Notes under the pieces: model-generated
Seen by the model: only the letters and a program-made list of their open reading frames with translations
Databases searched by the model: none
Told to the model about the DNA's origin: nothing
Shown here: positions 11,007-42,911 of the stretch, piece after piece
How positions within the stretch are numbered: the stretch's first letter is position 1
Layout: every line of letters starts with the position of its first letter
From: an uncultured Bacilli bacterium
GTDB taxonomy: Bacteria > Bacillota_I > Bacilli_A > RF39 > UBA660
Assembly (NCBI GenBank): GCA_947626115.1
Contig: CANQQX010000002.1
Location: 2,871 to 66,870, forward strand
DNA length: 64,000 nucleotides
Direction: 5' to 3'
Made by a program: the position numbers and the translations under genes

Positions 11007-11020
11007 TAAAATAAAAATTT

Positions 11021-11234: not shown

Positions 11235-11253
11235 ATTAATATAAGGAGGTTAA

Positions 11254-11845: not shown

Positions 11846-11848
11846 ATA

Positions 11849-12250
11849 ATGAAAGTTCGTTTATATACTGATGAAGAGATTAAAAAATTAAAACAGTGTG
11901 TCTTTGTCAGGAATATAAGATATAAAAGAGAAATAGAGTATGATCCAATTTTTAAATTATGGACTATTATGATGAGATATGATATGCCAGAATTATCCGC
12001 AAGAGAAATATTTGCTCGTGGTGGTTTTGATGTAAATATACTTCACAAAAAATTACCGCAACGAAGAATTAAAGAATGGACTGATAATTATAAAAAATTC
12101 GGTATAAGATATTTTTTACCAGAAAATAAATATTATGAAAGCGTTGACTGTCCGAAACCAGTTAAAAAAGTTCATGATACTTTTAAAATACAAATATTGG
12201 ATTATGTTTTAACGCGATTAAAGGAAATTGATTTTAATGACAATAGATAA
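11849..12250 (+). CDS. Hypothetical protein in the relaxosome gene block
   Basis: 133-aa ORF, 3 nt after the previous stop and overlapping the next gene. No firm motif. Confidence 0.35.
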   Translation: MKVRLYTDEEIKKLKQCVFVRNIRYKREIEYDPIFKLWTIMMRYDMPELSAREIFARGGFDVNILHKKLPQRRIKEWTDNYKKFGIRYFLPENKYYESVDCPKPVKKVHDTFKIQILDYVLTRLKEIDFNDNR

Positions 12251-12554
12251 GCATATATATTTTACTAATGAAGAATATGCTCGTATAAAAGATTATGCTG
12301 ATAGGAATAAGTTATCGTTTTCTAAAACTGTATGTAATTTATCTATATCTGCTTTAAATGATAATGAAATTTTAGATAGATTTAATAAGTTGGAAAAAAG
12401 TATTGAATATATTATAAAAAAACAGCATGTTATTCATTTATTAGAAGAGCAAATATATTCAGATATGGATTTTGAAAATGTTTCAGATCCTAAAAAAAGT
12501 AAACCTTTAAATGAATTTAATAAAAGGATTAGGAATAATTATATAAATGACTAA
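12228..12554 (+). CDS. MobC-like relaxosome accessory protein
   Basis: FTNEEYARIKDYADRNKLSFSKTVCNLSISAL resembles the MobC/RHH accessory pattern. It overlaps the relaxase start. Confidence 0.5.
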   Translation: MILMTIDKHIYFTNEEYARIKDYADRNKLSFSKTVCNLSISALNDNEILDRFNKLEKSIEYIIKKQHVIHLLEEQIYSDMDFENVSDPKKSKPLNEFNKRIRNNYIND

Positions 12555-13854: not shown

Positions 13855-13887
13855 TTGCAAATTTTATAAAAAAATGTTATTATACAG

Positions 13888-13917
13888 TTGTGATAAATAA
13901 AAAAAGGTTTATCACAA
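13888..13917. repeat. Perfect 10-bp inverted repeat downstream of the relaxase gene
   Basis: TTGTGATAAA (13888-13897) and TTTATCACAA (13908-13917). No T-run follows. Confidence 0.7.
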
Positions 13918-14088
13918 GTGAACCATTTTACTTTACCGTGCATACAATCTTTACAGATAAATGCTATGGTAAACAACAAAATAGTTGCTAGTATAGGACT
14001 ATTTTTTCATTTATAATATTAAAGTTTTTATATTTTTAAATAGAAAAGGACATATTGTACATTATAAATAAAAAGATAGGGTGATTAT

Positions 14089-14298
14089 ATGGGATTAGCA
14101 TTTTACATTAATAAGCATATATATGTTATTGTAGCAATAATCGTAATAATAACTTTTATTGTTATAGCTATTTTTTGGTATAAATATAAAAAAGATTCTA
14201 GAGAACTAAAAGAATTTTTTGGGAATATAGTTTCTTGTTCAATGTATGATTTTAAGCATAAAGTTAATAAACATGAAGTAGCAACAAAAAATAAGTAA
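14089..14298 (+). CDS. Single-pass membrane protein (69 aa)
   Basis: Central hydrophobic helix VIVAIIVIITFIVIAIFW followed by a basic stretch. SD GATAGGGTGA. Confidence 0.45.
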   Translation: MGLAFYINKHIYVIVAIIVIITFIVIAIFWYKYKKDSRELKEFFGNIVSCSMYDFKHKVNKHEVATKNK

Positions 14299-14501
14299 TG
14301 ATGAAAATAGCAAATAAAGAATTATTAAAAAAAATATATAGTGAATTAAAATTAAATCCGAAAGTATCTCAAAAAACATTAGCAAGAAAATATAATGTTT
14401 GTGAGAGAACAATCAGAAGATACTATAAAGTTTTAAAAGATAATGGTTTTATTATTCAATATAGCTCAGGAAGAAGCACAGAATGGAATATTATAAATTA
14501 A
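14298..14501 (+). CDS. Small winged-HTH transcriptional regulator (67 aa)
   Basis: VSQKTLARKYNVCERTIRRYYKVLKDNGFI is an HTH. Start overlaps the previous stop (TAATG). Confidence 0.55.
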   Translation: MMKIANKELLKKIYSELKLNPKVSQKTLARKYNVCERTIRRYYKVLKDNGFIIQYSSGRSTEWNIIN

Positions 14502-14578
14502 TGTATTATAATATGTTATATATGTTTTAATTTAAATGTTGCGTAATTAACTCTACTAGAATTTTTGCAGGAGGTATT

Positions 14579-15292
14579 ATGAAATGCGTTAATTGTAACT
14601 CTACAAATGTCCAAAAAGATGGAAATCATAATGGTTATCAAAGGTATAAATGTTTAAATTGTAAAAAAAGATTTGATTTTGGAAAATATGAAAATGTTAA
14701 TGAGTATATTTTACATTTTAATCTTAAATTAAAAAAACAGGATAATAACAAATTAACAAGAGAAAATTATTGTGTTCCATCAAATAAGCCAAGTTATTAT
14801 GGAAGAGAAGTTTATAGCGATGAATGGGTAAAAAAACAACATGAAAGATGTTTAAAAAATTTTGATGGTAAGATGACAAAAGTCAATAAATTAAATCATA
14901 ATGATTTTAATAACTATTTAATTAATTTTGTAAATAAATATGATTTTAAAGAAATTAAAGATTTAAATGAAGTTAATAATATATCAGGAATATATATAAT
15001 GGTTTTAGATAGCTATTCGCAAGTTTATATTGGTATGTCAAAAAATACAATAAAAAGAAGGATTATTGAACATTGGCGAAAACGAATACCGTTTGATCGA
15101 TTAGTGTCTAGTAAAAACCGTAATTCTTTAATCAATATTGATTCATTTGGAGCGTTAGACACAACTAGAATATTTTATAAACAAGTTGAGTCAGAACTTT
15201 GTGATAATTATTTAGATAAAACTGTAAATGAATTTAATGATATTTATAATTTAAATAGTGATTTAGATGAGCAAACTCTAAGTGATATATAA
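14579..15292 (+). CDS. Zn-ribbon (IS1 InsA-like) + GIY-YIG nuclease domain protein
   Basis: N-terminus CVNCNSTNVQKDGNHNGYQRYKCLNCKKRF is a CxxC...CxxC ribbon. C-terminus ISGIYIMVLDSYSQVYIGMSKNTIKRRIIEHW carries GIY...YIG...R...H. SD GCAGGAGG. Confidence 0.65.
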   Translation: MKCVNCNSTNVQKDGNHNGYQRYKCLNCKKRFDFGKYENVNEYILHFNLKLKKQDNNKLTRENYCVPSNKPSYYGREVYSDEWVKKQHERCLKNFDGKMTKVNKLNHNDFNNYLINFVNKYDFKEIKDLNEVNNISGIYIMVLDSYSQVYIGMSKNTIKRRIIEHWRKRIPFDRLVSSKNRNSLINIDSFGALDTTRIFYKQVESELCDNYLDKTVNEFNDIYNLNSDLDEQTLSDI

Positions 15293-15305
15293 AGTTTGCT
15301 TTTTT
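15271..15305 (+). terminator. Intrinsic terminator
   Basis: GCAAACT (15271-15277) pairs with AGTTTGC (15293-15299), followed by T6. Confidence 0.6.
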
Positions 15306-15489
15306 ATTCTCTTTTTAACACTTGTACTAAATTATCTAAATGAATAAATGTTAAATGAATTCTTGATTTTTAGTGGTTATTATTAATTGTAATAAATATC
15401 ACAAATTGATATTTATTACTGAAAAACTGTTATTTATGTTCAAATTGTAGTCAAATTTTTACAACAAATAATACAGAATTATACATTTT

Positions 15490-15543
15490 AGCACATTAAA
15501 TTAGCACATTAAATTTGACAAATGTTTACAAATGTGTTATACT
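15490..15543 (+). promoter_or_regulatory. Near-consensus sigma-A promoter with operator-like direct repeats
   Basis: TTGACA (15515-15520), a 17-nt spacer, then TATACT (15538-15543). AGCACATTAAATT occurs twice in tandem (15490-15515) abutting the -35. ACAAATGT occurs twice in the spacer (15518-15525, 15528-15535). Confidence 0.65.
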
Positions 15544-15607
15544 TTTTTTATCAACGAGGGGGTTAAATACATTTCTTTGAAATTTTATGATAAGGGGGAA
15601 TTTAAAA

Positions 15608-16141
15608 ATGGAAAAGAAAGTTGACAAGAAAAGAATAGTAAAATTTGCAGCAGCAGGTTTATTAACTGCTACATTAGCAACAGGTATAGGATTACATATA
15701 TATGATTCAAATATTGATCATTTGAATGAATATTGTCCACTTAATAATATTTTTGGTGCACAACATCAAGTTCACGAAATTAATAATGAATATGCTGTAT
15801 ATGGAATAAATGCCTTTTATGCAGAAAATGGTAGAGCCCAATTGGTCTCTGCACCTATGATATCAGAAAAGGATGGTAAAACAATTTATACTGCCCCAAT
15901 TGGGTATGAATTATCTAATGGTCAAGTAGTAAAAAATGTTGGATTTGATGAATTAGAGAAAGATAAAGAAGATGCAATTGTTTTAACATCTGGAACTCCA
16001 GTATATCCTGAAGGTGCACAACCAGGAGATATAATAAGAAAGTCTGATATTCAAGTATATGATCCACAAGTTGTTAAATTGATTAGAGCTAATCAAGAAA
16101 TTGAATCTGAATTAATAGATCAAGAAAAACTCTCAAGATAG
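15608..16141 (+). CDS. Membrane-anchored extracytoplasmic protein, unknown function
   Basis: SD AAGGGGGA upstream of ATG 15608. N-terminal basic stretch plus hydrophobic helix (FAAAGLLTATLATGIGL). No known motif. Confidence 0.45.
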   Translation: MEKKVDKKRIVKFAAAGLLTATLATGIGLHIYDSNIDHLNEYCPLNNIFGAQHQVHEINNEYAVYGINAFYAENGRAQLVSAPMISEKDGKTIYTAPIGYELSNGQVVKNVGFDELEKDKEDAIVLTSGTPVYPEGAQPGDIIRKSDIQVYDPQVVKLIRANQEIESELIDQEKLSR

Positions 16142-16161
16142 ATAGAAAAGAGAATGATAAA

Positions 16162-16425
16162 ATGAGAAGTATGCAATTTGCAGTAGAAGATAAAAATGGA
16201 AGAAAAATAATCTGTGAAGTAATTGCAACTTATCATGATGATGAAACAAATAAAGATTATATTGTATATACTGATAAAACTTTAGATGAAAATAAAAAAT
16301 TAAAATTATATTATTCATTGTATAAACAAATTGATAATAATATTAAATTAATTGATATTAAAGATTCTGAAGATAAAAAAATAGGATTACAATTAATTAA
16401 AGAAATTATTAATGATATAAAATAA
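16162..16425 (+). CDS. DUF1292 family protein (ICE-borne paralogue)
   Basis: FAVEDKNGRKIICEVIATYHDDETNKDYIVYTD fits the DUF1292 pattern. A chromosomal family member lies at 58218-58421. Confidence 0.55.
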   Translation: MRSMQFAVEDKNGRKIICEVIATYHDDETNKDYIVYTDKTLDENKKLKLYYSLYKQIDNNIKLIDIKDSEDKKIGLQLIKEIINDIK

Positions 16426-16657
16426 CAAAATTAAAGCATTGAACTTAAATAGTTTGGTGCTTTTTTATGTTATAAGTTTATGTCAAATAAGTTTGATATC
16501 GAAAATATAATTTATAAATTAGATAAAACATCGGTTTTTGTATCAGAGCAGATTACAATTTGAGATAGCGTTGATATAAAAGTTGGATTTCTAATAATAA
16601 AATAAAAATATTTATGTTACAATGAATAAGAAGATTTATATGAGGTGGGAATATATT

Positions 16658-17617
16658 ATGGAAAAATTGAGTTTATTGCAAAAAAGAAAAATGGCAATCG
16701 AAGAATTAATAAAATATGAAAATGAACTAAGAAAATATAATTATGATAATGGTTATCAATTAAAAGCTATAAATATTAGGAAAAAAATACATTGGTTAGT
16801 TAGTTTGATTCTTAAAATAGATCAAGTGCTATCTAAAGAAAAAATAATAGTTTTAAATGATAAGCATAATACTCAAAGTAATAATTCAAGAATTTATGCA
16901 TGTACTCATATAGGTGGTAATGATATTCAAAGAACTTTTCAAGTTATAAAAGAGCCAGCTTATCTTATGTTAGGTGATCCAGGTATTTTATATAAAATGC
17001 TTATTTATCAAGGTTTAAGAATGAATGGAGTTATACCACTAGATACTGCAGACAAAAAAGATAGAAAAATTGCCTATAATAGGAGTATTGAACTTTTAAA
17101 TAAAGGTGGTAATTTATTAATTTATCCAGAAGGAGCTTGGAATGTTTCACCTAATTTAGTGGTAATGAAAATATTTAAAGGTGCTATCAGAATGGCTAAA
17201 GAAACTGGTGCTGAAATAATTCCAATTGGTGTAGAACAGTATGATGATACATTTTATTTTAATATAGGTGAAAATTATACTATTTCAAAAGATACTTTAA
17301 AATCTGAAGATGAATTGAGAGATGAATTAAGAGAAAAGTTAGCAACATTAAAATGGGAAATTATTGAATCACAACCAAAGTTTGATAGAGCAGATTTAAC
17401 TGATAATTATTTGGAAGATTTTCAAAATAAAATTGTTGAAAGATGTAATTATGGTTATGGTTTTTCATTACAAGATGCTTTAGCAGAAAGTTTTCACGAT
17501 AAAACAGTTGTTGATGAAGAAGAAGTGTATTCATTTTTAGATGATTTAGAAATTGGAAAACATAATGCTTTTCTGTTACAAAACAAATTAAATTTACAAA
17601 GAATAAGAAAAAAATAA
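16658..17617 (+). CDS. PlsC/LPLAT-family acyltransferase
   Basis: HIGGND (HX4D) and LIYPEGAWN motifs. SD GAGGTGGG upstream of ATG 16658. Confidence 0.65.
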   Translation: MEKLSLLQKRKMAIEELIKYENELRKYNYDNGYQLKAINIRKKIHWLVSLILKIDQVLSKEKIIVLNDKHNTQSNNSRIYACTHIGGNDIQRTFQVIKEPAYLMLGDPGILYKMLIYQGLRMNGVIPLDTADKKDRKIAYNRSIELLNKGGNLLIYPEGAWNVSPNLVVMKIFKGAIRMAKETGAEIIPIGVEQYDDTFYFNIGENYTISKDTLKSEDELRDELREKLATLKWEIIESQPKFDRADLTDNYLEDFQNKIVERCNYGYGFSLQDALAESFHDKTVVDEEEVYSFLDDLEIGKHNAFLLQNKLNLQRIRKK

Positions 17618-17681
17618 TAACAATTAATAGATTAAATTAATAAGTTTATGATATAATTGTTAATAGTAAGAGGTTGATGGT

Positions 17682-19070
17682 ATGGATGCAGTAATTTTAC
17701 CAATAATTGCAGTGCTAATTGATGTTACACTTATTATTTTATTCTTTTCTAAAAAACATATCAAAAACACTGAAACAAAAATATATTCAACAATGCTGTT
17801 TTTAACATTAATCTTTGCATTAATAGGAATAATAACTTTTATAATAGCAAAATTAACCGGTAACTTATCTTTGATAGAAATATTTCAAAAATTATATATG
17901 CTATTGTTAATAATATTAGATTATTATTCTTTAAAGTATTGTTTTATTGTTTCTAATATTAATATAAAATACAATAAGATTGTAAAATTTACAGTATTAG
18001 GTATTACATTTATATCAATGTTTTTGCTACTTGTTTTACCACTTAATGTAATTTTTGAAAAAAATTTATTAGATGGTGAAGGACTTTCTTATAATATTGC
18101 TGTTTTCTATTCCTTGATGACATTTTTAATTATTGTTATTTTAACTTTATTTTTAACTTTTAAAAATAGAGATACTATTGTTAAAATTATTCCATTTTTG
18201 ATTTTGATATTTCTTTATGTTTTAGGTTTTATTTTAAGAACTATTTATCGTGAATTAATTTTTGAGGGATTTTTCTATTCATATATATTATTAATTATGT
18301 ATCATACCATAGAGAATCCTGATGTAAAAATGTTAAATGAAGTTATTTTAGCTAAAAATCAAATTGAAAAAAATAATAAAGTAAAATCTGAATTTATTTC
18401 AAGTATGTCGCATGAAATTAGAACACCACTTAATGCAATAGTTGGTTATGCTCAATTAATTGATTATGCTGATACATTAGAAGAAGCAAAAGAAAATTCT
18501 AAGGAAATTGTAAATGCATCTAATACACTTCTTAATATGTTAAGTAATGTTTTGGATATATCAATGGTTGAAGTTAATTCCTTAGAATTAAGAGAAGTAA
18601 AATATGATTTTCAAAAACTACTTAATGATGTTTTAGAGTTATTTAAATATAAGATAGATTCAAAGAAGATAAAACTTGAAATTAAAGTAGATAAAAATAT
18701 AAATGAGCTTGTTGGTGATCCGGACAAAATAAAAAGAATTTTAGCTAATTTAATTGATAACGCTATAAAATATACTGATAAAGGGAAAATTATCATATCT
18801 GTATCTAGTGAAATAAAAAATAAATGCTGTACTTTGAAAATATCTGTTTCTGATACTGGAAAAGGTATGGATGAGATTACATTAAAACATCTTTACAACA
18901 ATTTTAATAGATCTGAGAAATATGTTAATAGTAGTATATCTGGAATGGGATTGGGTTTATCCATAACTAAAAGTTTAACCGAACTTATGGATGGATCAAT
19001 TAATTGTAAAAGTGAAGTAGGTAAGGGCACAACATTTAATGTTGAGATAAAGCAAAGGATAGGTTTTTGA
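17682..19070 (+). CDS. Sensor histidine kinase with polytopic membrane N-terminal domain
   Basis: About six TM helices, then HisKA (SHEIRTPLNAIVGYAQL) and HATPase_c (DTGKGMD, GMGLGLSITKSL, GKGTTF). Confidence 0.85.
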   Translation: MDAVILPIIAVLIDVTLIILFFSKKHIKNTETKIYSTMLFLTLIFALIGIITFIIAKLTGNLSLIEIFQKLYMLLLIILDYYSLKYCFIVSNINIKYNKIVKFTVLGITFISMFLLLVLPLNVIFEKNLLDGEGLSYNIAVFYSLMTFLIIVILTLFLTFKNRDTIVKIIPFLILIFLYVLGFILRTIYRELIFEGFFYSYILLIMYHTIENPDVKMLNEVILAKNQIEKNNKVKSEFISSMSHEIRTPLNAIVGYAQLIDYADTLEEAKENSKEIVNASNTLLNMLSNVLDISMVEVNSLELREVKYDFQKLLNDVLELFKYKIDSKKIKLEIKVDKNINELVGDPDKIKRILANLIDNAIKYTDKGKIIISVSSEIKNKCCTLKISVSDTGKGMDEITLKHLYNNFNRSEKYVNSSISGMGLGLSITKSLTELMDGSINCKSEVGKGTTFNVEIKQRIGF

Positions 19071-19438
19071 TGAAAGTATTAGTAGTAGATGATTCACAAA
19101 TTAATTTAAGGGTAGCTCAAAAGTTATTAGAATTTGAAGGTTTAAATGTTGATACTGTTTTAAGTGGAAAAGAATGTCTAGAAAAAGTAAAGACTGAAAA
19201 ATATGATATTATTTTTATGGACATTATGATGCCAGAAATGGATGGAGTAGAAACATTTAAAAAGTTGCAAGAACAAGAAGGTTTTAATATTCCTGTTGTT
19301 TGCTTAACAGCTGATGCAGAAACAGGATCTCGTGATAAATATTTATCTGTTGGTTTTTGTGATTATATACCAAAACCAATTAATAAAAATGATTTGCATA
19401 TAATAATAGAAAAAATTAAAATTGATAAAAATTTATAA
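19070..19438 (+). CDS. Stand-alone response-regulator receiver domain (no output domain)
   Basis: VLVVDDSQINL...IIFMDIMMPEMDG...CLTADA...IPKPI. Start overlaps the kinase stop (TGATG). Confidence 0.85.
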   Translation: MKVLVVDDSQINLRVAQKLLEFEGLNVDTVLSGKECLEKVKTEKYDIIFMDIMMPEMDGVETFKKLQEQEGFNIPVVCLTADAETGSRDKYLSVGFCDYIPKPINKNDLHIIIEKIKIDKNL

Positions 19439-19528
19439 AAAATTTGAAAAAAACTATTTTTTTTAATTATTGAGTGTTATAATAAGCTCGTTTTATGAGT
19501 TTTTGATTTATATGAGGTGGGAAGAAAG

Positions 19529-20044
19529 ATGGATTTTAAAGAAGATATTTTAAAACAAAGAAAGGAATATTTAGGGTTAGATAAAGTACTCACAAAACTT
19601 ATATTTGAACAAATTATCGATTATTATAAAAATTTAGTAGTAAAAGCACCTAGAGAAGTTATTGGTTATACTATTGATATTGTAATTTGTAATATGAATT
19701 TTTATAATAAATTAGGGAGTTTAGAAAATTTGAATAAAACATGGGGTGATACTAATCTTTATGTTGATTTAAATAATTCAGAATTTGTATCTCAAACAAG
19801 TAATGATGATGAATATGAAGAAATTATTGAAGAATTATCATTTAGAGATATTTCAGAATTTAAAGAATTTAAAAATATTTCATTTTCTTTAAAGGAAATG
19901 ATTGAATTGTGCAGACAATATGACTTTAGCTTAAAAATATTGGCAAAAGATGATAAAAATCATGAAACAACTTTGGAAATTTCTCCTTATTTACCTTTTG
20001 CTATGAATGATAATATTAAATGTTATTTAGAAACTTTAAACTAA
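19529..20044 (+). CDS. Hypothetical protein (172 aa)
   Basis: ORF with the same 19-nt SD-containing leader as the acyltransferase gene. No known motif. Confidence 0.4.
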   Translation: MDFKEDILKQRKEYLGLDKVLTKLIFEQIIDYYKNLVVKAPREVIGYTIDIVICNMNFYNKLGSLENLNKTWGDTNLYVDLNNSEFVSQTSNDDEYEEIIEELSFRDISEFKEFKNISFSLKEMIELCRQYDFSLKILAKDDKNHETTLEISPYLPFAMNDNIKCYLETLN

Positions 20045-20052
20045 AAATAAAT

Positions 20053-20087
20053 AAGAATTGGGAATTAAAATACCAGTTCTTTTTTTT
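20053..20087 (+). terminator. Intrinsic terminator
   Basis: AAGAATTGG (20053-20061) pairs with CCAGTTCTT (20073-20081, one G-U), followed by a T-run. Confidence 0.65.
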
Positions 20088-20118
20088 GCTATAAAGTTAA
20101 AAGAAAGGGATGATGTAA

Positions 20119-20196
20119 ATGAATTTATTTATTATTGTTTTTTTAATTTTTATTATATCTTATTTAGAATGGAGTCAAAATGTTAGAATTAAATAA
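20119..20196 (+). CDS. Possible 25-aa hydrophobic leader peptide overlapping the methyltransferase start
   Basis: SD AAAGGGA then ATG 20119. Translates to MNLFIIVFLIFIISYLEWSQNVRIK. Below the ORF-track size cutoff. Confidence 0.25.
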   Translation: MNLFIIVFLIFIISYLEWSQNVRIK

Positions 20197-20905
20197 GATA
20201 TACAACGAAGATTGTTTAAAAGGCTTAAAGAAAATACCTGATAATTCAATAGATTTAGTTCTAATTGATCCGCCTTATGATATTTGTACTGCTGGTGGTA
20301 AAAAGGGAAATGATAGAATCACAAAAAGTAAGAAAAAAGTAGAAAGTGAATTAATTACTAATAATTTAGTTAATGGTTTTGATTTTAAAATTTTAGATGA
20401 GTTAATTAGAGTAATGAAGGGCATTAATATCTATATTTGGTGTAATGTTAGACAAATACCGATGTATATAAAATATTTCAATTTACAACTTAAATGTAAA
20501 TTAGAAGTTCTTATATGGAACAAAACAAACCCTATACCATTACATAATCATGCATATATGAATGATAAAGAGTACTGTTTATATTTTCGAAATAATGGTT
20601 ATTGTAATCCAAAGAATTATGAAGATTCAAAAACTGTATATATTTCAACAATTAATGTGAATGACAAAAAATTATATAATCACCCTACAATAAAACCATT
20701 AAGCTTAACAAGAAAAATTATTAGAAACAGTTCTAAAGAGCAAGAAACGGTTTTAGATTGCTTTTTAGGAAGTGGTACAACTGCTGTTGCATGTATTTTA
20801 GAAAATAGAAATTATATAGGTTTTGAAATAGATAAAAAATATTATGATATTGCTTTAAAAAGAATTGAAGAAGCAATTAAAATGAAGGAGGAGGAAAACA
20901 AATGA
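20180..20905 (+). CDS. Orphan DNA methyltransferase (beta-class N6-adenine/N4-cytosine type)
   Basis: LVLIDPPYD (motif IV) lies N-terminal to FLGSGTT (motif I). No adjacent restriction endonuclease gene. Confidence 0.8.
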   Translation: MLELNKIYNEDCLKGLKKIPDNSIDLVLIDPPYDICTAGGKKGNDRITKSKKKVESELITNNLVNGFDFKILDELIRVMKGINIYIWCNVRQIPMYIKYFNLQLKCKLEVLIWNKTNPIPLHNHAYMNDKEYCLYFRNNGYCNPKNYEDSKTVYISTINVNDKKLYNHPTIKPLSLTRKIIRNSSKEQETVLDCFLGSGTTAVACILENRNYIGFEIDKKYYDIALKRIEEAIKMKEEENK

Positions 20906-21039
20906 TTTATATTTTAGGTTTTATAGGAGCAGTTTTATTATTGTTTATATTACTATTTTTATTTTGTACTATGAAGATTTCTAGTAAATGTTCTCGTATC
21001 GAAGAAAGGGGTGATAAAGATGAAGAAATCAAAAAATGA
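20902..21039 (+). CDS. Possible 45-aa single-TM peptide coupled to the methyltransferase stop
   Basis: ATGA overlap with the methyltransferase stop. Translates to MIYILGFIGAVLLLFILLFLFCTMKISSKCSRIEERGDKDEEIKK. Confidence 0.3.
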   Translation: MIYILGFIGAVLLLFILLFLFCTMKISSKCSRIEERGDKDEEIKK

Positions 21040-21259
21040 TTTAAAAAATATACTATTTAATATGTTTGATGAATATGAAGAAGTAGATGATATTATAGAT
21101 AATTTGAGAAATTTGGAAAGCGACAATGAAATTACAAGTGATGAGTATGGTGAAATAATGGATAATTATGATTCATGGCTTACTGAATATGAAAAAAAAG
21201 AACAAGAACAAAAATTAGAAAATAAAAATAAATCAAAAAGCAAGGAGCTTGATTTATAA
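21020..21259 (+). CDS. Hypothetical acidic protein
   Basis: SD GAAAGGGGTGA upstream of ATG 21020. Asp/Glu-rich, about 80 aa. Confidence 0.4.
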   Translation: MKKSKNDLKNILFNMFDEYEEVDDIIDNLRNLESDNEITSDEYGEIMDNYDSWLTEYEKKEQEQKLENKNKSKSKELDL

Positions 21260-21944: not shown

Positions 21945-24104
21945 ATGAATTTGCCCCTTATTGCTTTATTGTTAGTATTAATTGTATTTATTATTTTTTT
22001 TATTTATATAGAGCCAATAATTGCTAAACATAAAATAAAAAATAATAATGAATATGGATCAGCAAGGTTTTCTACTTTATCAGAAATAAATAAAAATTTT
22101 GTGAAAGAAAGAATTTCTAATATTCATGATGTTGGATTTCCTGTCTATTATGATAAAAAAGCTAATCATGTATGGTTTGATAAAGAAACACCACACTATG
22201 TTTATTTAGGATCTAGTGGATCTGGTAAAAGTGTAACTTGTGTTATCCCTATGATAAGTTTTATTGCTAATGCTAAAAAACCAAGAAGTATATTTGTAAC
22301 TGATCCAAAAGGTGAAATTTATCATACTACTTCTAAAATGTTGTATGATAAGGGTTATAAAATTTTAACAATAGATTTTAGACATCCTGAATTATCTAAT
22401 CATATTAATATTTTAGAGCCGATTATTTGTGAGTATGAAAAATTTATTGATTATGATAAAAAAGTTAAAGAATATGAAAATAAGATGTTGCCATATCTAT
22501 CTCAAAATAAGGTTTTAAAAGAAAAGTTAAAAACTAAAAAATTAAAACCAATAAATATAGAAAGAATAAATAATAAAATTGATATTAATAATAAAATACT
22601 TAATATTTTTAATAAGGCAAAATTAGATAATCAAAATAATTCAATTTCTAGTTATGCAGATACAAGTAGATTAATTACTTCTTTAGCTTCAATGATTACT
22701 TATGAAAAAATACAAAATAAAGATCCTTTTTGGAATAATAGTGCTAAAAATTTACTTGAAGGTTTAATTGGATTTTTTTTAGAAGAATATAAAGATGGTA
22801 AAATAAGTCGTGAACAAATTACTATGACTTCTATTCGTAAATTTCAAAACTCAACCATGGAAGAAAAAAATTCTGAAAAATTTAAAAATTATATAAAACA
22901 AAAACCTTATGGTACTAAATCAAAGGATAGTTTAATTCCAATTCTCTCATCTAGTGAAAATACTTATAAGTCTATCACTAGCGTTTTTTCAGAAAAAATG
23001 GCAATATTTGATGATGTAAATGTTGCTAATGTTACAAGTAAATCAGATTTTGACTTTGATATTTTAGGAAAAGAAAAGTCTGCTTTATTTGTTATTGTTC
23101 CTGATGAAGATAAAATTTATTATACATTGGTTACTATTATTTTAGGCTTATTGTATAAAGAATTAGTCAAATTAGCTAATAGTACCGAAAATAAAAAGTG
23201 TCCTATTGAGATAGACTGGATATGCGATGAATTTTCAAATTGTCCACCTTTAGTTGAGCCAAGTATAGAATCAATTATTAGTGTTGCTAGATCTCGTGGA
23301 TTAAGATATCATTTATTTATTCAATCTTTAAGTCAATTAGATAATGTTTATGGTAAAGAAGTAGCTCAAATTATTCTCGATAACTCTGGACTTGCTTATT
23401 TAAAAACTAATACTATGGATACTGCTGAGGCAATTAGCAAAAGATTAGGTAAAAAAACAATAGAATCGAATTCTATTAGTCAGTCAGTTAGTCTAACTAA
23501 TTATAATGGCAATAAATCAACATCTCTAATTGCTCGTGATTTACTTACTCCAGATGAAGTTAAAAATCTTCATTATAAAACAATTATATTTCCCAATATA
23601 GGTTATCCAATTTTTAGAGATACTGTTATTTATAAAAAACTATCATGTTATTCTAGTGGTGAATTAAAAAGGAAAGTAACTCCATTAGTAGATTTAAGTA
23701 ATACATATTTTACAGTAGAAGATATTAAAACTAAATATGATAGACTTTATAGAAATAGAACTAATAAATCTATTGAAGAGCCAGAATTATCAGATTATGA
23801 TTTATTTAAAGAATCGGAAAAAGAAAAATTAAAAAATATAGTTGAAATAGTACAAAACCAATTAAAAGATAAAATCTCTTTATTTGAATTTAAAGAAAAT
23901 AACAATAGAACTTATGCTAGTTTTGAATTATCTAGACCATTAAATGCTAAGGAATTGGCATTTGTAAAAGGTAGAACAAATAAAAATGTATATCATCTAG
24001 AAATAGATAATGATAGTAATACTAAATCTACTATTGAAATACATTTGAAAAATCCTTTGGAACAAGACTTAACTTTTGAAAAAGGAAAAAATAATAATGT
24101 CTAG
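21945..24104 (+). CDS. Type IV coupling protein (VirD4/TraG family)
   Basis: N-terminal TM helix, YGSARFSTLSEI, Walker A GSSGSGKSVT and Walker B IDWICDEF. 719 aa. Confidence 0.85.
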   Translation: MNLPLIALLLVLIVFIIFFIYIEPIIAKHKIKNNNEYGSARFSTLSEINKNFVKERISNIHDVGFPVYYDKKANHVWFDKETPHYVYLGSSGSGKSVTCVIPMISFIANAKKPRSIFVTDPKGEIYHTTSKMLYDKGYKILTIDFRHPELSNHINILEPIICEYEKFIDYDKKVKEYENKMLPYLSQNKVLKEKLKTKKLKPINIERINNKIDINNKILNIFNKAKLDNQNNSISSYADTSRLITSLASMITYEKIQNKDPFWNNSAKNLLEGLIGFFLEEYKDGKISREQITMTSIRKFQNSTMEEKNSEKFKNYIKQKPYGTKSKDSLIPILSSSENTYKSITSVFSEKMAIFDDVNVANVTSKSDFDFDILGKEKSALFVIVPDEDKIYYTLVTIILGLLYKELVKLANSTENKKCPIEIDWICDEFSNCPPLVEPSIESIISVARSRGLRYHLFIQSLSQLDNVYGKEVAQIILDNSGLAYLKTNTMDTAEAISKRLGKKTIESNSISQSVSLTNYNGNKSTSLIARDLLTPDEVKNLHYKTIIFPNIGYPIFRDTVIYKKLSCYSSGELKRKVTPLVDLSNTYFTVEDIKTKYDRLYRNRTNKSIEEPELSDYDLFKESEKEKLKNIVEIVQNQLKDKISLFEFKENNNRTYASFELSRPLNAKELAFVKGRTNKNVYHLEIDNDSNTKSTIEIHLKNPLEQDLTFEKGKNNNV

Positions 24105-24170
24105 TTTGGACTTATTGTTCTTTTTTTAATTAGTTTTCATAAAATTTAAAGAATACGGAGGAATTCTTTA

Positions 24171-24386
24171 ATGTATGAAACTAACGATATAGAAGTTAAG
24201 TTTAGTACAAAGCATTTACCTTTTGAATATAAATGGTTGGAATATAGATTAATTGTAAATAAAGAATTATATGATGAAAAAGTTATAGATTTAAAAGTAT
24301 TTAAAGCAATGGAACAGTCTCTTTTATCAAGACTTAATAAACTTAAAAATGAATATTCAAATAAATTGACAAATAACAACAAATGA
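24171..24386 (+). CDS. Hypothetical small protein upstream of the recombinase
   Basis: SD ACGGAGG upstream of ATG 24171. The antisense ORF 24146-24382 is judged a shadow. Confidence 0.35.
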   Translation: MYETNDIEVKFSTKHLPFEYKWLEYRLIVNKELYDEKVIDLKVFKAMEQSLLSRLNKLKNEYSNKLTNNNK

Positions 24387-24447: not shown

Positions 24448-24675
24448 ATGTATTTTAAAAAAATTAGAGAAAGGTTAAAAGAAGGTAAAATAATTTATGA
24501 CAAGGATTTAAATGTTTGTTACTATACTCGTATTTCAAACAATAAATTGGATTCACTTGAAAATCAGAAAAAATATTGTGAAAAAATGATTAAGAGAAAC
24601 AACATAAAGAATCTAATTCATAGCTATATTGATAAGTATATTTTTGGTATAGCAGTAAAACATAAATTGTTTTAA
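24448..24675 (+). pseudogene. Truncated, diverged tandem duplicate of the serine recombinase 5' end
   Basis: The 75-aa product aligns with residues 1 to about 80 of the 24707 recombinase (GKIIYD..LNV.YY.R.S...LENQK.Y...MIK......YID......AVKH). The upstream CATAGAAAGGA is also duplicated. It stops before the rest of the catalytic domain. Confidence 0.7.
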
Positions 24676-24706: not shown

Positions 24707-26428
24707 ATGGATGTTAAAAAAGTAAGAGAAGAGATAAGACAGGGTAAAATAATTTATGACATGGAATTAAATGTTGGTTACTATGCTCGTGTTTCAACAG
24801 ACAAAGATGATCAATTAAATTCACTTGAAAATCAAAAAAATTATTTTGAAGACATGATTAAAGAAAACAAAAAATGGAAATTAGTTCGTGGCTATATTGA
24901 TGAGGGTATTTCTGGTACGGCAGTAAAACATAGGGATTCCTTTTTAAAAATGATAGAAGATGCTACCTTAGGCAAATTAGATTTAATACTTACAAAAGAA
25001 ATATCAAGATTTTCAAGAAATACAGTAGATAGTATTAAATATACAGAATATTTGCTTAAAAATGGTGTTATTGTATATTTTTTATCAGATAACTTAAATA
25101 CAATTCAAGAAGATGCTGAATTTAGATTAACTATTATGTCTAGTTTAGCACAAGATGAAGTTAGAAAATTATCAGAAAGAGTTAAATTTGGTGTAAATAG
25201 AATGATTAAAGATGGTAAATTAATTGGTGGTAATTTAACTGGTTATTTCAAAAAAAATGGTAGATATGAAATAAATCCAAAAGAAGCACCAATAATAGAA
25301 TATTTATTTACTACTTATGCAAGTGGTAATATTGGACTTAAAAAAATTGGCGAAGAACTCGCAAAACAGGGTTATCTCAATTCAAAAGGACAACCTTATT
25401 CACAAACAACTTTGGCAAAGTTTTTGACTAATCCTAGATATAAAGGATATTATACTGCAAGACTTACCGAAGTTGAAGATTATAAAACTCATAAAAAGAA
25501 AAAAGTACCAAAAGAAAGACAAGTTATATATAAAGATGAAAGAATACCTGCTTTAGTATCAGAAGAGTTATGGGAAAAAGCAAATTTATTGCATGAGAAA
25601 AGAAAAAAATTACCATCAAGGCATATTTTAAATGCTGAAGAACATATCAAAAGATATAAATATTCTTGTAAATTATATTGTAAAGATTGTGGAGCAGTAT
25701 TTATTAGAAATGGTGGATCTAATCGTGCTAATAATCCAGTTTGGGCTTGTAAAACTTATAAAACTGATGGTGTATCTAAGTGTGCATCCCCAAACATAAA
25801 AGAATCGTATTTGGATAAAATATTTATTGATTTATTTAGTAATTTTATAAAAAATAAAAAACAATATATAAAATTAGTATTGAATGAATATAGAAATATT
25901 ATAGAAAATTATAGTGATGATTTAGATATTGAAGATATTAATAGTAAAATAGCAAATATTGAAAAGCAAAAAGATAAACTATTAGATTTAAGTATTAAAG
26001 GTATGATAGATGATTTTGAATTTAAAAAAAGAAATGATAAGTTTAATGTTGAGTTATTTAATTATCAAAAACAACTGGATAATCATTCGCAAAGTGATTT
26101 AGAAGAAGAAAAATTAAAGAAGAAATTACAAAACATTGAAAATTGTTTAAATACCAAATTAGACATTAAAGAAAATTTACCATATTTAATTAATCTATTA
26201 GTTGAGAAAGTAGAAATAGAAAAAGTTAATGGTGATAGAAAGCATATAAAATTAAAAATATTTTATGATTTTAATACTCCAGATATTGATATAGATTTAG
26301 ATATGAATGAAGATAACTCATTAAAAAGTTTGAGTTCTAAAAACCTTGCTTGTGCAAGACATTCTTCTGTCTTAAAGTGTTCCTGTATAGATACAAAGCA
26401 ACCCAGGATTTGTCTCGTTAGGAAATAA
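24707..26428 (+). CDS. Large serine recombinase (ICE integrase)
   Basis: YARVSTDKDDQLNSLENQ catalytic N-terminus, recombinase domain, Cys-rich zinc ribbon (CKDCGAVF...WACKTYKTDGVSKC) and a coiled-coil C-terminal part. The last codons read into PBP-derived DNA. Confidence 0.9.
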   Translation: MDVKKVREEIRQGKIIYDMELNVGYYARVSTDKDDQLNSLENQKNYFEDMIKENKKWKLVRGYIDEGISGTAVKHRDSFLKMIEDATLGKLDLILTKEISRFSRNTVDSIKYTEYLLKNGVIVYFLSDNLNTIQEDAEFRLTIMSSLAQDEVRKLSERVKFGVNRMIKDGKLIGGNLTGYFKKNGRYEINPKEAPIIEYLFTTYASGNIGLKKIGEELAKQGYLNSKGQPYSQTTLAKFLTNPRYKGYYTARLTEVEDYKTHKKKKVPKERQVIYKDERIPALVSEELWEKANLLHEKRKKLPSRHILNAEEHIKRYKYSCKLYCKDCGAVFIRNGGSNRANNPVWACKTYKTDGVSKCASPNIKESYLDKIFIDLFSNFIKNKKQYIKLVLNEYRNIIENYSDDLDIEDINSKIANIEKQKDKLLDLSIKGMIDDFEFKKRNDKFNVELFNYQKQLDNHSQSDLEEEKLKKKLQNIENCLNTKLDIKENLPYLINLLVEKVEIEKVNGDRKHIKLKIFYDFNTPDIDIDLDMNEDNSLKSLSSKNLACARHSSVLKCSCIDTKQPRICLVRK

Positions 26429-27260
26429 ACTGGGAGTAGAAAAATTAATGGGTTATATTAGAGGCTTTGGCTTTGGTACTAAAACAGGAATTGATTTAAA
26501 TGGAGAAGGCAATGGTATATTATTTAAAAACGAAAATATGGGACCAGTAGAACTTGCCACAACTGCCTTTGGTCAAGGTATAAGTGTGACACCAATACAA
26601 CAAATAACCGCGATATCGGCTGCGATTAATGGTGGTAATTTAAATACGCCATATGTTGTATCTGCAATAATAGATGATAGTAGTAAATCAATTATTTATG
26701 AAAATAAACCGAAAACAAAAAGAAGAGTAATAAGTAAAGAAACATCCGCTACCGTTAGATTTGTTTTAGAAAGTGTCGTTGCTAATGGTACGGGTAAAAA
26801 TGCTTATATTGAAAATTATCGTGTTGGCGGTAAAACCGGAACAGCGCAAAAGGTTTCTAATGGTAAATATATGGTTGGTAATTATATTCTATCTTTTATT
26901 GGCTTTTTACCAGCCGATGATCCGGAAGTTATTGTTTATGTAGCAGTGAATAATCCGAAAGGAGTGACGCAATACGGCGGAACAGTTTCAGCACCAATTG
27001 CCCGAAATATAATGCTTTCTGCTATTGAAACTTTAGGTATTAAAGAAAAAGAAGGCGGCATGTTAAAAGAATATAGTTATTTAGATGTTAAATATTTACA
27101 AGTACCAGATGTAGTCGGAATGAGTAAGGAAGAAGCTACTAAAGCTTTAAAAGATTTTAAAGTAAAATATACTGGTGATGGTAATAAAGTAGCCTATATG
27201 TCTCCATTTGCTAATACCTTTCAAAGTGTGGAAACAACTATTACATTGTTATTAAACTAA
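26391..27260 (+). pseudogene. 3' portion (SxN box to C-terminal PASTA) of a class B penicillin-binding protein gene, separated from its 5' half by the ICE
   Basis: The frame upstream of ATG 26448 reads IQSNPGFVSLGNKLGVEKLMGYIRGFGFGTKTGIDLNGE and is closed by TAG 26388-26390. Contains GGKTGTA (KTG box) and a PASTA-like end (VPDVVGMSKEEATKALKD). No SxxK-bearing N-terminal half is present. Confidence 0.8.
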
Positions 27261-27344: not shown

Positions 27345-28337
27345 ATGTTAATACTAGCAAAGGCAGCGATGGCCATGATGTTAGGTTTTACTTTAGCAAT
27401 TGCATCAGGTTTAGTATTTATTCCCATGCTTAAGAAATTTCATATTGGTCAAATGGTTAGTAGAGAAATTAATAAAAGACATTTAGTTAAGGAAGGAACA
27501 CCAACAATGGGTGGGATTATCTTTATTTTTCCAGTTATTCTTTCTTTAATTTTATTATATATCAATGGTAGTATTGAAATAAGTTATAATATAATTATTT
27601 TAGTTTTTACCTTTTTAGCTTATGCTCTTTTAGGTGGCGTTGATGATTATTTAAAAGTAAAATTTAAAAATAATGCCGGGCTTTCTATTGTCACTAAATT
27701 TTTAATTCAAATGATTATTGCTTTAGTGTTTTTCTATTTATTTATGCGCAGTGGTGGCTCTAATGTATTACAATTTACCGCTTTAAATTTAGTAATACCA
27801 TTAGGGTGGACCTTTGGTTTATTCATTTTATTTTTACTAGTTGGTACAACTAATGCGGTTAATATTACCGATGGCTTAGATGGTTTGTGTGCAGGACTAT
27901 CTGCGATTGCCTTTCTTGCTTATGGTATTATTTCTTGGAATTGTGGTTGGCTTGAAGGGTATCAAGAAATTGCTATTTTCTGCTTTTTAATCGTTGGGGC
28001 TTTACTTGGTTTCTTAGTTTATAATTCGCATCCTGCTCACGTATTTATGGGAGACTTAGGATCTCTTTCATTAGGTGGTGCACTTGCTACAATTGCTATT
28101 TTAACTAGACATGAATTATCGCTTGCTATTATTGGTGGCGTCTTTGTTATTGAAACATTAAGTAGTTTAATTCAAATAATAGGCATTCGAAAATTTAATA
28201 AAAAGATATTTTTAAAAGCACCATTGCATCATCATTTTGAAGAATTAAAATGGAGTGAAAGTGATATAGTTAAATTATTTTATGTGGTCGGTTTAATTTT
28301 AGCCATGGCTGCAATTACTTATGGTGTTTGGTTATAG
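27345..28337 (+). CDS. mraY: Phospho-N-acetylmuramoyl-pentapeptide transferase
   Basis: GTPTMGGIIF, NAVNITDGLDGL, VFMGDLGSLSLGG and PLHHHFE motifs. 330 aa. Confidence 0.95.
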   Translation: MLILAKAAMAMMLGFTLAIASGLVFIPMLKKFHIGQMVSREINKRHLVKEGTPTMGGIIFIFPVILSLILLYINGSIEISYNIIILVFTFLAYALLGGVDDYLKVKFKNNAGLSIVTKFLIQMIIALVFFYLFMRSGGSNVLQFTALNLVIPLGWTFGLFILFLLVGTTNAVNITDGLDGLCAGLSAIAFLAYGIISWNCGWLEGYQEIAIFCFLIVGALLGFLVYNSHPAHVFMGDLGSLSLGGALATIAILTRHELSLAIIGGVFVIETLSSLIQIIGIRKFNKKIFLKAPLHHHFEELKWSESDIVKLFYVVGLILAMAAITYGVWL

Positions 28338-28365: not shown

Positions 28366-29451
28366 TTGAAAAAGAACTTTGATAGACAATTATTAATAAC
28401 AGTAATAATAATTGCCATCTTTGGTTTAGTAATGATTTATTCCGCTAGTTTTGTGTGGGCAGAATATAAATTTAATGATCCTTATAAATTTGTGAAAATG
28501 CAAGGATTATTTTTCTTAGTTGGTTTAATTTTAATGTATTTTTTATCGAAAGTAGATTATCATCTCTATTATAAAAAAGCTAACTTAATATTAATGATAT
28601 GTGCTATTCTTTTGATTTTAGTTTTAATTCCCGGTATTGGTAGTATTAGAAATGGTAGTCGTAGTTGGTTTGGTATAGGTTCTTTAGGTATTCAACCATC
28701 AGAATTTGCTAAAATTGGTTTAATTATTTATGTTTCTAAATATTTAACTAATAATAAAAGAATAATGAAAAGTATAAAAAGCGGTGTTTTACCTATTTTA
28801 GGAGTTATCGGTTTATTCTTTCTTTTAATTATGTTAGAACCTGATTTTGGTACCGCAATGGTTATTGTCTTAACTTTAGTAGTGTTGATATTTATAAGTG
28901 GAGTTGAAATATCATTCTTTGTCAAAGTTGGCCTTTTTGGTTTACTTGGTATAGTTGGCATTATCATTGCAGCCCCTTACCGGATGAAGAGAATAGTAAG
29001 TTTCTTAAATCCGTGGAGCGATCCTTTAAGTTCAGGTTATCAAATACTCCAAAGTTTATATGCCATTGGTCCTGGTGGACTTCTCGGTCAAGGATTTTTA
29101 AAATCACGCCAAAAATATTTTTATTTACCTGAACCCCAAACCGATTTTATTTTTTCCATTATTAGTGAAGAATTAGGTTTCTTAGGTATCTTAATAGTTA
29201 GTATTTTATTTTTTATTATCTTTTATCGTGGCATTACTATATCACTAAAAGCGAGTGATTTATTTGGTAAATACTTAGCTTTTGGTCTTGTCTTTGGTTT
29301 AATTATTCAAGCTTTATTAAACTTAGCAGTAGTAGTAGGTTTAATTCCGGTAACTGGTGTAACTTTACCTTTTCTTAGTTATGGTGGATCTTCATTACTT
29401 GTTAGTATGGCTAGTATTGGTATACTTTTAAATATTTCCCGCAATTCTTGA
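28366..29451 (+). CDS. ftsW: FtsW/RodA/SpoVE family peptidoglycan polymerase
   Basis: Ten-TM SEDS pattern with PSEFAKI, EPDFGTA, TDFIFSIISEELGF and LPFLSYGGSS. TTG start after SD AAGGGGG. Confidence 0.9.
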   Translation: MKKNFDRQLLITVIIIAIFGLVMIYSASFVWAEYKFNDPYKFVKMQGLFFLVGLILMYFLSKVDYHLYYKKANLILMICAILLILVLIPGIGSIRNGSRSWFGIGSLGIQPSEFAKIGLIIYVSKYLTNNKRIMKSIKSGVLPILGVIGLFFLLIMLEPDFGTAMVIVLTLVVLIFISGVEISFFVKVGLFGLLGIVGIIIAAPYRMKRIVSFLNPWSDPLSSGYQILQSLYAIGPGGLLGQGFLKSRQKYFYLPEPQTDFIFSIISEELGFLGILIVSILFFIIFYRGITISLKASDLFGKYLAFGLVFGLIIQALLNLAVVVGLIPVTGVTLPFLSYGGSSLLVSMASIGILLNISRNS

Positions 29452-29567: not shown

Positions 29568-29864
29568 ATGGAGTCATTGAATTTAAATGTTCGAGTTGAT
29601 GCTCATGATAAAAAAAGTTTTGAGCAATTTTGTAATAGCGTAGGAATGAATGTGTCTACTGCTATTAATATGTTTATAAAAGCAGTCCTTCGTGAGAGAA
29701 AACTACCTTTTGAAATAAGAGATGATTATAATGATTATATCTATGATAAATTAAATGAAGCAGAAGAACAAATGAAAACAACTACTAAAAGATATTCTAA
29801 GGATGAGCTTTTAGAAAAAATGAATAATATTATCAATGAATTTGAAAGTAATAATCTTGAATAA
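29568..29864 (+). CDS. RelB/DinJ family antitoxin
   Basis: LNVRVDAHDKKSFEQFCNSVGMNVSTAINMFIKAVLRERKLPFEI matches the DinJ/RelB RHH pattern. Confidence 0.8.
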   Translation: MESLNLNVRVDAHDKKSFEQFCNSVGMNVSTAINMFIKAVLRERKLPFEIRDDYNDYIYDKLNEAEEQMKTTTKRYSKDELLEKMNNIINEFESNNLE

Positions 29865-29869
29865 AATTT

Positions 29870-30186
29870 ATGTATAAGTTAGAAATATTCATTTTGCTGA
29901 TAGATTTATTACCAATATTATTCATTATATTTCATTTGATTTAAAAAATATTACTGCTGCAAAGCAACATAGAGATTTATTTATGCAAAGTTTTGATTAT
30001 ATTTTAGAATTTCCTTATGGATGTCCTTCTTATAAAATAAAAAATAGAATGAACTTTGAATATAGAGTTTACAAAGTAAAGAATTATCTTATGTTTTATA
30101 CCATAAATAGAAAAGAACAAAAAATTATTATTAGTAGGGTTTTATATCAAAGAATGAATTTTAATGATATTTTAAATATAAAATGA
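29870..30186 (+). pseudogene. ParE/RelE family toxin gene with a 5' frameshift
   Basis: ATG 29870 gives MYKLEIF... then a stop after 24 codons. The other frame reads IHFADRFITNIIHYISFDLKNITAAKQHRDLF...YRVYKVKNYLMFYTINRKEQKIIISRVLYQRMN, which is toxin-like. One indel near 29887-29892 separates the two frames. Confidence 0.7.
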
Positions 30187-42898: not shown

Positions 42899-42911
42899 TA
42901 TTGATATATAG

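Follow-up and report, generated by a model that had tools for sequence, protein, structure and literature searches.

Why does a penicillin-binding protein (PBP) gene that stands directly before mraY lack its 5′ part, and why does a recombinase gene run into what is left of it? The locus that raises this question lies in a stretch of 64,000 nt (the window), which comprises positions 2,871–66,870, forward strand, of contig CANQQX010000002.1 (GCA_947626115.1) from an uncultured Bacilli bacterium (GTDB lineage Bacteria; Bacillota_I; Bacilli_A; RF39; UBA660). The window is AT-rich, with a G+C content of about 25%. Its positions 26377–26425 are explained, with a probability of about three in four, as the right attachment site (attR) of an integrative and conjugative element (ICE) that has been inserted site-specifically by a large serine recombinase (LSR) into spoVD, the cortex transpeptidase gene, of an uncultured low-G+C gut member of the Bacilli. 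The insertion splits spoVD into a 5′ half, which bears the SxxK and S-C-N boxes and a short element-encoded tail, and a 3′ half, which bears KTG and PASTA. The features at the junction are as follows.

24707–26428, + strand: LSR gene, 573 aa, the final 8 codons and stop of which are encoded by spoVD DNA.
26377–26425, + strand: attR, with the P arm (GTGTTCCTGTAT...AAGC), the crossover dinucleotide AA at 26400–26401 and the B′ arm (CCCAGGATTTGT...).
26400–27260, + strand: 3′ fragment of spoVD, codons 348–633, with the Asn of the SxN box, KTG and PASTA.
27345–28337, + strand: mraY (TIGR00445, 295 bits; cut-off 192).
28366–29451, + strand: spoVE-type SEDS gene (TIGR02615 spoVE, 458.2 bits; cut-off 448.8).

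The fragment retains the last 286 codons of a class B PBP gene of the SpoVD type; the SxxK box and the Ser and Cys of the S-C-N box are missing. An earlier reading of the sequence alone (the original prediction) held that the open reading frame (ORF) at 26448–27260 has no N-terminus of its own, and the frame is indeed open upstream as far as a TAG at 26388–26390, the extended translation being IQSNPGFVSLGNKLGVEKLMGY... This 289-aa frame contains the GGKTGTA motif and matches Pfam Transpeptidase (positions 103–298 of 299, E=1e-54) and Pfam PASTA (E=3e-7), and the fragment is 92% identical in amino acids to its closest intact relative. Comparison with the PBP2B, SpoVD and FtsI families, which the original prediction had proposed, gave a match to the NCBIfam SpoVD model TIGR02214 (positions 346–632 of 636, E=1e-101). 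These matches agree with the predicted KTG box and PASTA-like end followed by mraY and ftsW, the last of which is of the spoVE type. The prediction also placed the start of homology at the SxN box, with roughly the first 350 codons including SxxK missing; the missing part is as predicted, and the position of the box needs correction. Intact genes read ...VVENSCNPGFVSLG... there, and the window reads IQSNPGFVSLG after a stop. The true box is S-C-N, the Ser and Cys codons of which remain on the 5′ half; the window holds the Asn alone, and the ‘S’ of its QSN is element-encoded and aligned to the Cys of intact genes. The boundary is also seen in base composition. G+C increases from 21.8% at 25901–26400 to 33.4% at 26401–26900, a step at 26400 that bears out the predicted rise to the right of about 26.4 kb, and mean G+C is 23.9% in the ICE part versus 26.3% in the remaining window. 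Chromosomal homology to the closest intact relative begins only at 26400. No further sporulation genes are present in the window itself.

Intact orthologues, and with them the empty site that was to be sought in related genomes according to the original prediction, are found in close relatives. In a scan of GTDB genomes, in which the best 80 of 556 relatives were kept and which therefore gives no estimate of prevalence, spoVD is intact in all of the loci kept. The closest intact relative is a rabbit-gut ‘uncultured Bacilli’ metagenome-assembled genome (MAG; L099) with a 633-aa gene (706.6 bits; TIGR02214 cut-off 688). A search with the N-terminal 347 residues of L099 SpoVD yielded many 5′ fragments that end just past S-C-N in short foreign tails. 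One of these, P0121 (363 aa, 94% identical), ends ...ENSCN/LGVNTGTHTNLKNML and a stop (the slash denotes the crossover, here and below), i.e., 15 codons past S-C-N. The contig of this fragment (L100), which shares its ENA accession series with the window contig, carries rsmH, ftsL, a PBP2X-like PBP gene and, further on, the spoVD 5′ half followed by foreign DNA; the 700-aa PBP neighbour scores 340.7 bits against the SpoVD model and has its best match in PBP2X. Flanks were joined in silico, as also originally proposed: L100 and the window, joined at AA, form a single 633-aa ORF with STFK, SCN, KTG and PASTA, which is 93.2% identical to L099 without gaps and scores 691 bits against TIGR02214 (equivalog cut-off 688). 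The rejoined ORF is thus a SpoVD by its score, its SxxK, SxN and KTG boxes, its PASTA domain and its position in the division and cell-wall (dcw) cluster before mraY and spoVE.

The attachment sites were deduced by comparing attR of the window with the empty site of L099 (attB) and the left attachment site of L100 (attL). They read GAAAATTCTTGTAA/CCCTGGTTTTGT in attB, GATACAAAGCAA/CCCAGGATTTGT in attR and GAGAATTCTTGTAA/TCTTGGAGTCAATACAGGAACAC in attL, and have in common the crossover dinucleotide AA, which lies within the Cys-Asn codons of the S-C-N box. The synthetic rejoined junctions are ...GAAAATTCTTGTAA/CCCAGGATTTGTCTCG... for attB and ...GATACAAAGCAA/TCTTGGAGTCAATACAGGAAC... for the site on the excised element (attP), and the sequences expected after excision are GAAAATTCTTGTAACCCAGGATTTGT-like for attB and GATACAAAGCAATCTTGGAGTCAATACAGG for attP. 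In the reconstructed attP, the arms match as an inverted repeat at 18/23 positions; a 12-bp block within the repeat is perfect (GTGTTCCTGTAT and ATACAGGAACAC) and lies symmetrically about AA. A 2-bp crossover, imperfect inverted repeats and hybrid attL and attR sites, which characterize LSR attachment sites, are thus all found here, and likewise in two elements that are each contained in a single contig. One (L102) is 9,082 bp long and carries genes for a 2,398-aa M26 peptidase and an LSR, and the other (L106) is a mini-element of 3,532 bp; both rejoin perfectly at the same AA; therefore, there is no doubt about the site as such. As in skin-type elements, the ORF of a sporulation gene is interrupted and precise excision, carried out in silico, restores it.

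The ORF at 24707–26428 has the domain set of LSRs, i.e., a resolvase catalytic domain (Resolvase PF00239, E=1.9e-29), a recombinase domain (Recombinase PF07508, E=4.7e-19) and a zinc ribbon (Zn_ribbon_recom PF13408, E=9.7e-9), and matches a PHROG integrase (E=1e-107). That its frame reads across the junction had been noticed from the sequence and is confirmed, with the correction that the spoVD-derived codons number 8 (PRICLVRK) plus the stop at 26426–26428, and not about 11, as homology starts at 26400. LSRs that are 78–96% identical are present at the same junction in L015, L103, L104 and L199, and spoVD DNA supplies the LSR stop codon in the window, L015, L103/104, L106/108, L199 and the distinct LSR of L198. 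Because of the overlap between the LSR gene and attP, host DNA encodes the end of the C-terminal tail of the LSR; in the reconstructed excised form of L106, the LSR would end SWCYYKNIFI instead of PRFRKTGSNAG before its stop. In relatives with the recombination unit beside attL (L109–L113), the LSR does not cross the junction. We attribute the overlap with spoVD to the location of attP, which lies in the 3′ end of the LSR gene; it is not shown to serve regulation.

A fusion of the LSR across attP with a DUF5655-like ORF was also considered, as the frame is open for 874 codons in the attP reconstruction from the window and L100, and was judged accidental: in the complete element of L106 the frame past the crossover stops after 10 codons, and in L123 and L129 a stop lies between the LSR and the DUF5655-like ORF, with a conserved stretch resembling a sigma-A promoter. 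In L123 (7540–7620), and also in L129, an L124-type LSR is followed by a hybrid site, the right arm of which, together with the downstream DUF5655-like ORF, matches the left end of L100; the LSR and the next ORF are in one frame with one TAA between them. This arrangement suggests tandem elements or an attP-like junction.

The spoVD junction is not unique to the window. It is identical in 7 metagenome contigs from separate samples, which excludes an artefact of assembly, and many further species have homologous junctions. Among the 80 loci obtained by scanning metagenome contigs with an LSR alignment, related LSRs use three sites in spoVD, at the SxxK box (...EPGSTFK/), at the SxN box and at ...GQGISVTPI/QQ. 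All 14 informative loci with an LSR at least 64% identical to that of the window are at the SxN site, as are LSRs of 47–54% identity; LSRs of 41–43% identity are at the SxxK codons or the GQGISVTPI/QQ site. In the N-terminal protein search, 86 of the best 120 clusters end at one of these sites (36 at SxN, 45 at GQGISVTPI/QQ and 5 at SxxK) and 29 read through; as the search tool may favour short proteins, these counts indicate that interruption is frequent, not its rate. Two LSR elements are present in one spoVD gene, leaving at least three pieces, in L110, L112, L151, L153, L105, L118 and L119; in L110, the order is codons 1–296, an LSR element, codons 291–350 and an LSR element. More distant LSR relatives (39–42% identity) flank sigK fragments in a skin-like manner (L143, L163 and L181) or lie at the SxxK box of a DacB-like D,D-carboxypeptidase gene (L131, L161 and L165), which may be another unreported target. 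We read the elements as a new family of spoVD-intervening elements.

What these elements have in common is a short recombination unit. In the window, the following features lie upstream of the LSR gene.

24138–24145, + strand: conserved CATAAAAT box 5′ of the 71-aa ORF, a candidate mother-cell-type −10 element.
24171–24386, + strand: 71-aa ORF, a candidate recombination directionality factor and LSR partner by its conserved linkage.
24448–24675, + strand: degenerate duplicate of the LSR N-terminus, 75 codons, a pseudogene remnant (Resolvase E=3.9e-4, weak; resembles LSR residues 1–75).

The unit is borne by ICE backbones (the window, L015, L103/104 and L107/108) and by mini-elements of 3.5–6 kb, which have no transfer genes and keep intact LSRs; homology between the carriers ends about 60 nt upstream of the 71-aa ORF. 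In tblastn, the 71-aa ORF has a match upstream of the LSR match in 41 loci covering all three spoVD site classes, of which 26 are at E≤0.01 and many are weak (E up to about 10); the distance to the LSR is mostly about 150 nt or less and reaches about 600 nt. The 71-aa ORF has no Pfam, NCBIfam or PHROG match, and is proposed as a candidate directionality factor by analogy with SprB, Skr and CD1234. The degenerate LSR copy sits between the 71-aa ORF and the LSR gene, where relatives have only 55–105 nt, and resembles what an earlier recombinase gene or a module swap would leave behind.

The stretch of about 60 nt upstream of the 71-aa ORF holds a box of a type also seen at spoVD promoters. CATAnnnT is found in 7/7 independent upstream sequences of the window LSR subfamily versus 12% of 953 background genes, and CATAnAnT precedes 47% of 76 intact spoVD genes versus 8% of 953 other genes, an approximately 6-fold enrichment; the box type occurs at 47–61% of intact spoVD promoters. 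CATAnAnT resembles the −10 element of mother-cell sigma factors, a hint at mother-cell expression of spoVD.

As relaxase, coupling protein, VirB4-like ATPase and sortase/pilin genes are present upstream of the LSR gene, the element is an ICE. Its features in the window are as follows.

1–26401, + strand: right-hand part of the ICE, at least 26.4 kb, with conjugation genes throughout; the left end lies outside the window.
635–1744, + strand: SpaA-type pilin/adhesin (Pfam SpaA, E=1.9e-30).
1686–2333, + strand: sortase (Sortase PF04203 recorded on the identical gene in L004).
6956–9313, + strand: VirB4-like conjugation ATPase (Pfam P-loop_TraG, DUF87 and AAA_10).
10089–11006, + strand: M23 peptidase, cell-wall hydrolase of the transfer apparatus (Peptidase_M23, E=2.8e-19).
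12547–13854, + strand: MobL-type relaxase (Pfam MobL, E=3.6e-12; Relaxase).
21945–24104, + strand: type IV coupling protein of the VirD4/TraG family (T4SS-DNA_transf, E=2.7e-57; TraG-D_C; TrwB_AAD_bind).

A relaxase, a coupling protein, a VirB4-type ATPase and an integrase are thus present on one integrated element, along with genes for single-stranded-DNA-binding protein. The conjugation genes and the intact orthologues agree with the original prediction, according to which an ICE, rather than a prophage, is inserted in a class B PBP gene at the spoVD position. The left end of this ICE was not reached: look-ups of the exact proteins of left-end window genes gave only short contigs, broken in the adhesin gene. 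Cargo genes at 16622–20905 encode an acyltransferase, a histidine kinase/response regulator pair and an N6/N4 DNA methyltransferase. In the 9.1-kb element of L102, a rabbit-gut MAG, the peptidase gene (7793–14989) is the sole cargo gene, with its M26 (IgA1-protease-type) region C-terminal. In L100, the DNA past the 5′ spoVD half (11155–21092), some of which may be element cargo, has genes for a reverse transcriptase of a group II intron, a resolvase fragment, an exo/endonuclease, acetate kinase, a NUDIX protein and a radical-SAM protein.

Elsewhere in the window, a second LSR gene, unrelated to that at spoVD (43419–45350; 643 aa; 25% identity between the two), lies directly 3′ of a tRNA-Thr gene (42797–42870) together with a gene for a MobV-like relaxase (45722–46870); the region 42797–46870 is probably a separate mobilisable element. 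A RelB/ParE toxin–antitoxin pair (29568–30186) directly follows spoVE, where L099 has a different 118-aa ORF. No NCBIfam model matches a 431-aa ORF at 49020–50315, which is located in a stretch that stands out in composition (G+C 35.6%, AT skew 0.45).

How the elements and the target gene have evolved is indicated by comparisons between hosts. LSRs are 97–99% identical between hosts with SpoVD only 51–58% identical; therefore, the elements move horizontally and most insertions are young. A test of element–host co-divergence failed, as similarity between the LSRs greatly exceeds that between the host genes; only L106/L108 and window/L198/L199 were informative. In the window, L198 and L199, sister lineages with a host synonymous divergence (dS) of 0.35–0.5, the SxN site is occupied in all three by different elements, the LSR of L198 being only 46% identical to that of the window. 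Across these three, the ratio of nonsynonymous to synonymous rates (omega) of the spoVD fragment is 0.04, the same as for mraY and spoVE; for L106 versus L108, omega is 0.07. Strong constraint combined with frequent interruption argues that interruption is not loss of function, although programmed excision is not proved thereby.

In the mechanism proposed, the LSR and the 71-aa candidate directionality factor would synapse attL and attR; the LSR would cut at AA, rotate its subunits and religate, yielding a circular ICE with attP and an intact spoVD with attB. Such excision would take place in donors prior to conjugation. By analogy with skin/sigK and SPbeta/spsM, excision might also occur in the sporulating mother cell, a proposal for which the chances appear about even: expression from the CATA-type promoter would bring about excision, allowing cortex synthesis to proceed, and the forespore would keep the element. 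Sporulation-coupled excision is plausible. The related uncultured orders RF39, RFN20 and ML615J-28 are predicted from gene content to be spore-formers (PMC10868615). That excision acts as a genetic switch, as suggested in the original prediction, remains an inference, strengthened indirectly by the CATA box and the omega values; the LSR relatives in sigK are a further indirect hint of excision during sporulation.

A broader interpretation is put forward tentatively, at somewhat less than even odds. In uncultured gut Bacilli, spoVD might serve as a multi-site landing pad. Portable units of a radiating clade, each consisting of the small ORF, the LSR and an att site, would ride on ICEs and mini-elements, have mother-cell-type promoters and be aimed at the DNA of SxxK, SxN and GQGISVTPIQQ; one to three elements would be cut out of one gene during sporulation to rebuild the cortex transpeptidase, with the forespore retaining them.

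Three other explanations were considered. According to the alternative offered with the original prediction, the 3′ fragment would be a displaced remnant and the left end of the ICE would supply a replacement 3′ end, keeping the PBP intact. No point in support of this was found; 5′ fragments of the SxN class end 3–25 codons past S-C-N in element-encoded tails such as LGVNTGTHTNLKNML and a stop, and the larger ORFs scanned in the ICE part of the window include no PBP-like ORF, making this explanation very improbable. Equally improbable is a naturally split PBP, the two polypeptides of which would assemble without DNA rearrangement. Gene callers do annotate a 270-aa ORF from the in-frame ATG at 26448, but the break runs through the catalytic SxN box, parting SxxK and SxN from KTG, its position coincides with the att core of the LSR, and relatives are broken at other points or not at all. 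A chimera of an ICE contig and a dcw-cluster contig, arising in assembly or binning, might be suspected in any sequence from metagenome assemblies; it is the least credible of all, given that the identical junction recurs in 7 contigs of different samples and assemblers, that other species have homologous junctions in which the crossover is the same and that the att half-sites have the symmetry of LSR sites.

A more serious rival accepts the insertion and disputes its developmental role. Ultra-conserved motif DNA of a gene dispensable for growth would merely serve as a broad-host-range attB, a safe harbour; spoVD would be knocked out in carriers, and excision would serve conjugation alone, with no sporulation-coupled rearrangement. 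The recent horizontal spread indicated by near-identical LSRs in diverged hosts, the ability of one gene to hold two elements at once and the common loss of sporulation in these gut lineages (PMC10868615) speak for this explanation. Against it, selection on the gene fragment is not relaxed (omega 0.04) even though all three sampled sister lineages, and most sampled alleles, are interrupted. It also leaves aside that the LSR clade is found in sigK and DacB-like genes as well, i.e., mother-cell sporulation genes, that units and spoVD promoters share a CATA-type box, and that mini-elements without transfer genes persist with intact LSRs. On balance, insertion into a mere safe harbour is considered rather unlikely.

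Several observations weigh against the interpretation favoured here, namely LSR-mediated insertion of the ICE into spoVD with excision that may be coupled to sporulation. The left-end contigs L100 and L101 share no DNA with window positions 1–26400; because no other DNA is shared, the link of the L100 attL to the window ICE is inferred, from att symmetry and the common ENA accession series. Neither an attB nor an attP junction of the window population was seen, and a scan of viral contigs for an exact attP 17-mer gave 14 matches, all by chance. The CATA box overlaps a sigma-A-like TAnAnT hexamer, no −35 element is assignable upstream of it, and the LSR lineage of L198 is without the box. LSRs are nearly identical across hosts with saturated core-gene dS, so that insertions are recent and purifying selection could predate them. 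Finally, sporulation in these uncultured orders is only predicted (PMC10868615).

The insertions described here add spoVD to the few sporulation genes known to be interrupted by elements with a recombinase, and the carrier is a natural conjugative element. In gene-content surveys, spoVD has been scored ‘reduced’ in RF39 and ‘reduced or absent’ in RF39-like lineages (PMC10868615); split spoVD genes, which can escape orthologue calling, may explain or contribute to these scores. The related LSRs, for which highly conserved att sites are defined and a directionality factor is proposed, make the evolution of specificity directly testable within one gene and are of practical interest for genome engineering. 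If excision is coupled to sporulation, horizontal gene transfer would be tied to spore formation and transmission in gut bacteria.

Known intervening elements of sporulation genes include skin/sigK (SpoIVCA), SPbeta/spsM (SprA/SprB), vfbin/spoVFB, vrin/spoVR, gin/gerE and yin/yabG (PMC4191935; PMC5595907; PMC10747680; bioRxiv 10.1101/2022.02.25.481979). As in these skin-type systems, a mother-cell sporulation gene has its ORF interrupted by an element with an LSR and restored by precise excision (here in silico), the recombinase gene adjoins the 3′ gene fragment, and element size and content vary widely, with the recombination unit alone in common; relatives of the window LSR (39–40% identity) even reside in sigK itself. 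Unlike in skin-type systems, the target is spoVD, the carrier is conjugative rather than prophage-like, and three att sites within one gene are used, sometimes together. In the literature searched, spoVD was not found described as a natural target of intervening elements; its one mention there is as a secondary site at which ICEBs1 integrated under experimental selection (PMC3715440).

Like Tn5397 (TndX) and other clostridial conjugative transposons with LSRs, the window ICE is mobilised by an LSR encoded at its end. Among solved structures, 3g13, a Clostridioides difficile ‘putative conjugative transposon recombinase’ (E=2e-41), is nearest to the catalytic domain of the window LSR, and TnpX matches as well. 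TndX is relaxed in its choice of targets around a GA dinucleotide; in contrast, 14/14 informative relatives here use one AA in the spoVD SxN codons.

An engineered ICEBs1–SPbeta chimera that integrated into the sporulation gene spsM and the concept of a ‘site-specific recombination unit’ have been reported (Suzuki et al., PMC6957869). The combination of small ORF, LSR and att site on ICE backbones and non-conjugative mini-elements corresponds to this concept and fits the proposed exchange of units between types of element; unlike the chimera, which is a laboratory construct, the window contains a natural ICE in a sporulation gene.

The heterocyst fdxN element (XisF) likewise depends on an LSR and interrupts a gene that only a terminally differentiated cell requires, and the XisF model matches the window LSR. 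In some cyanobacteria, several elements can interrupt one gene. Heterocyst elements differ in belonging to another phylum and developmental programme and in not being conjugative. If spoVD is indeed a multi-site landing pad, its elements would be the first conjugative elements to use the asymmetry between mother cell and forespore, and the gene would parallel, in the Bacilli, the heterocyst nif genes with their multiple interruptions.

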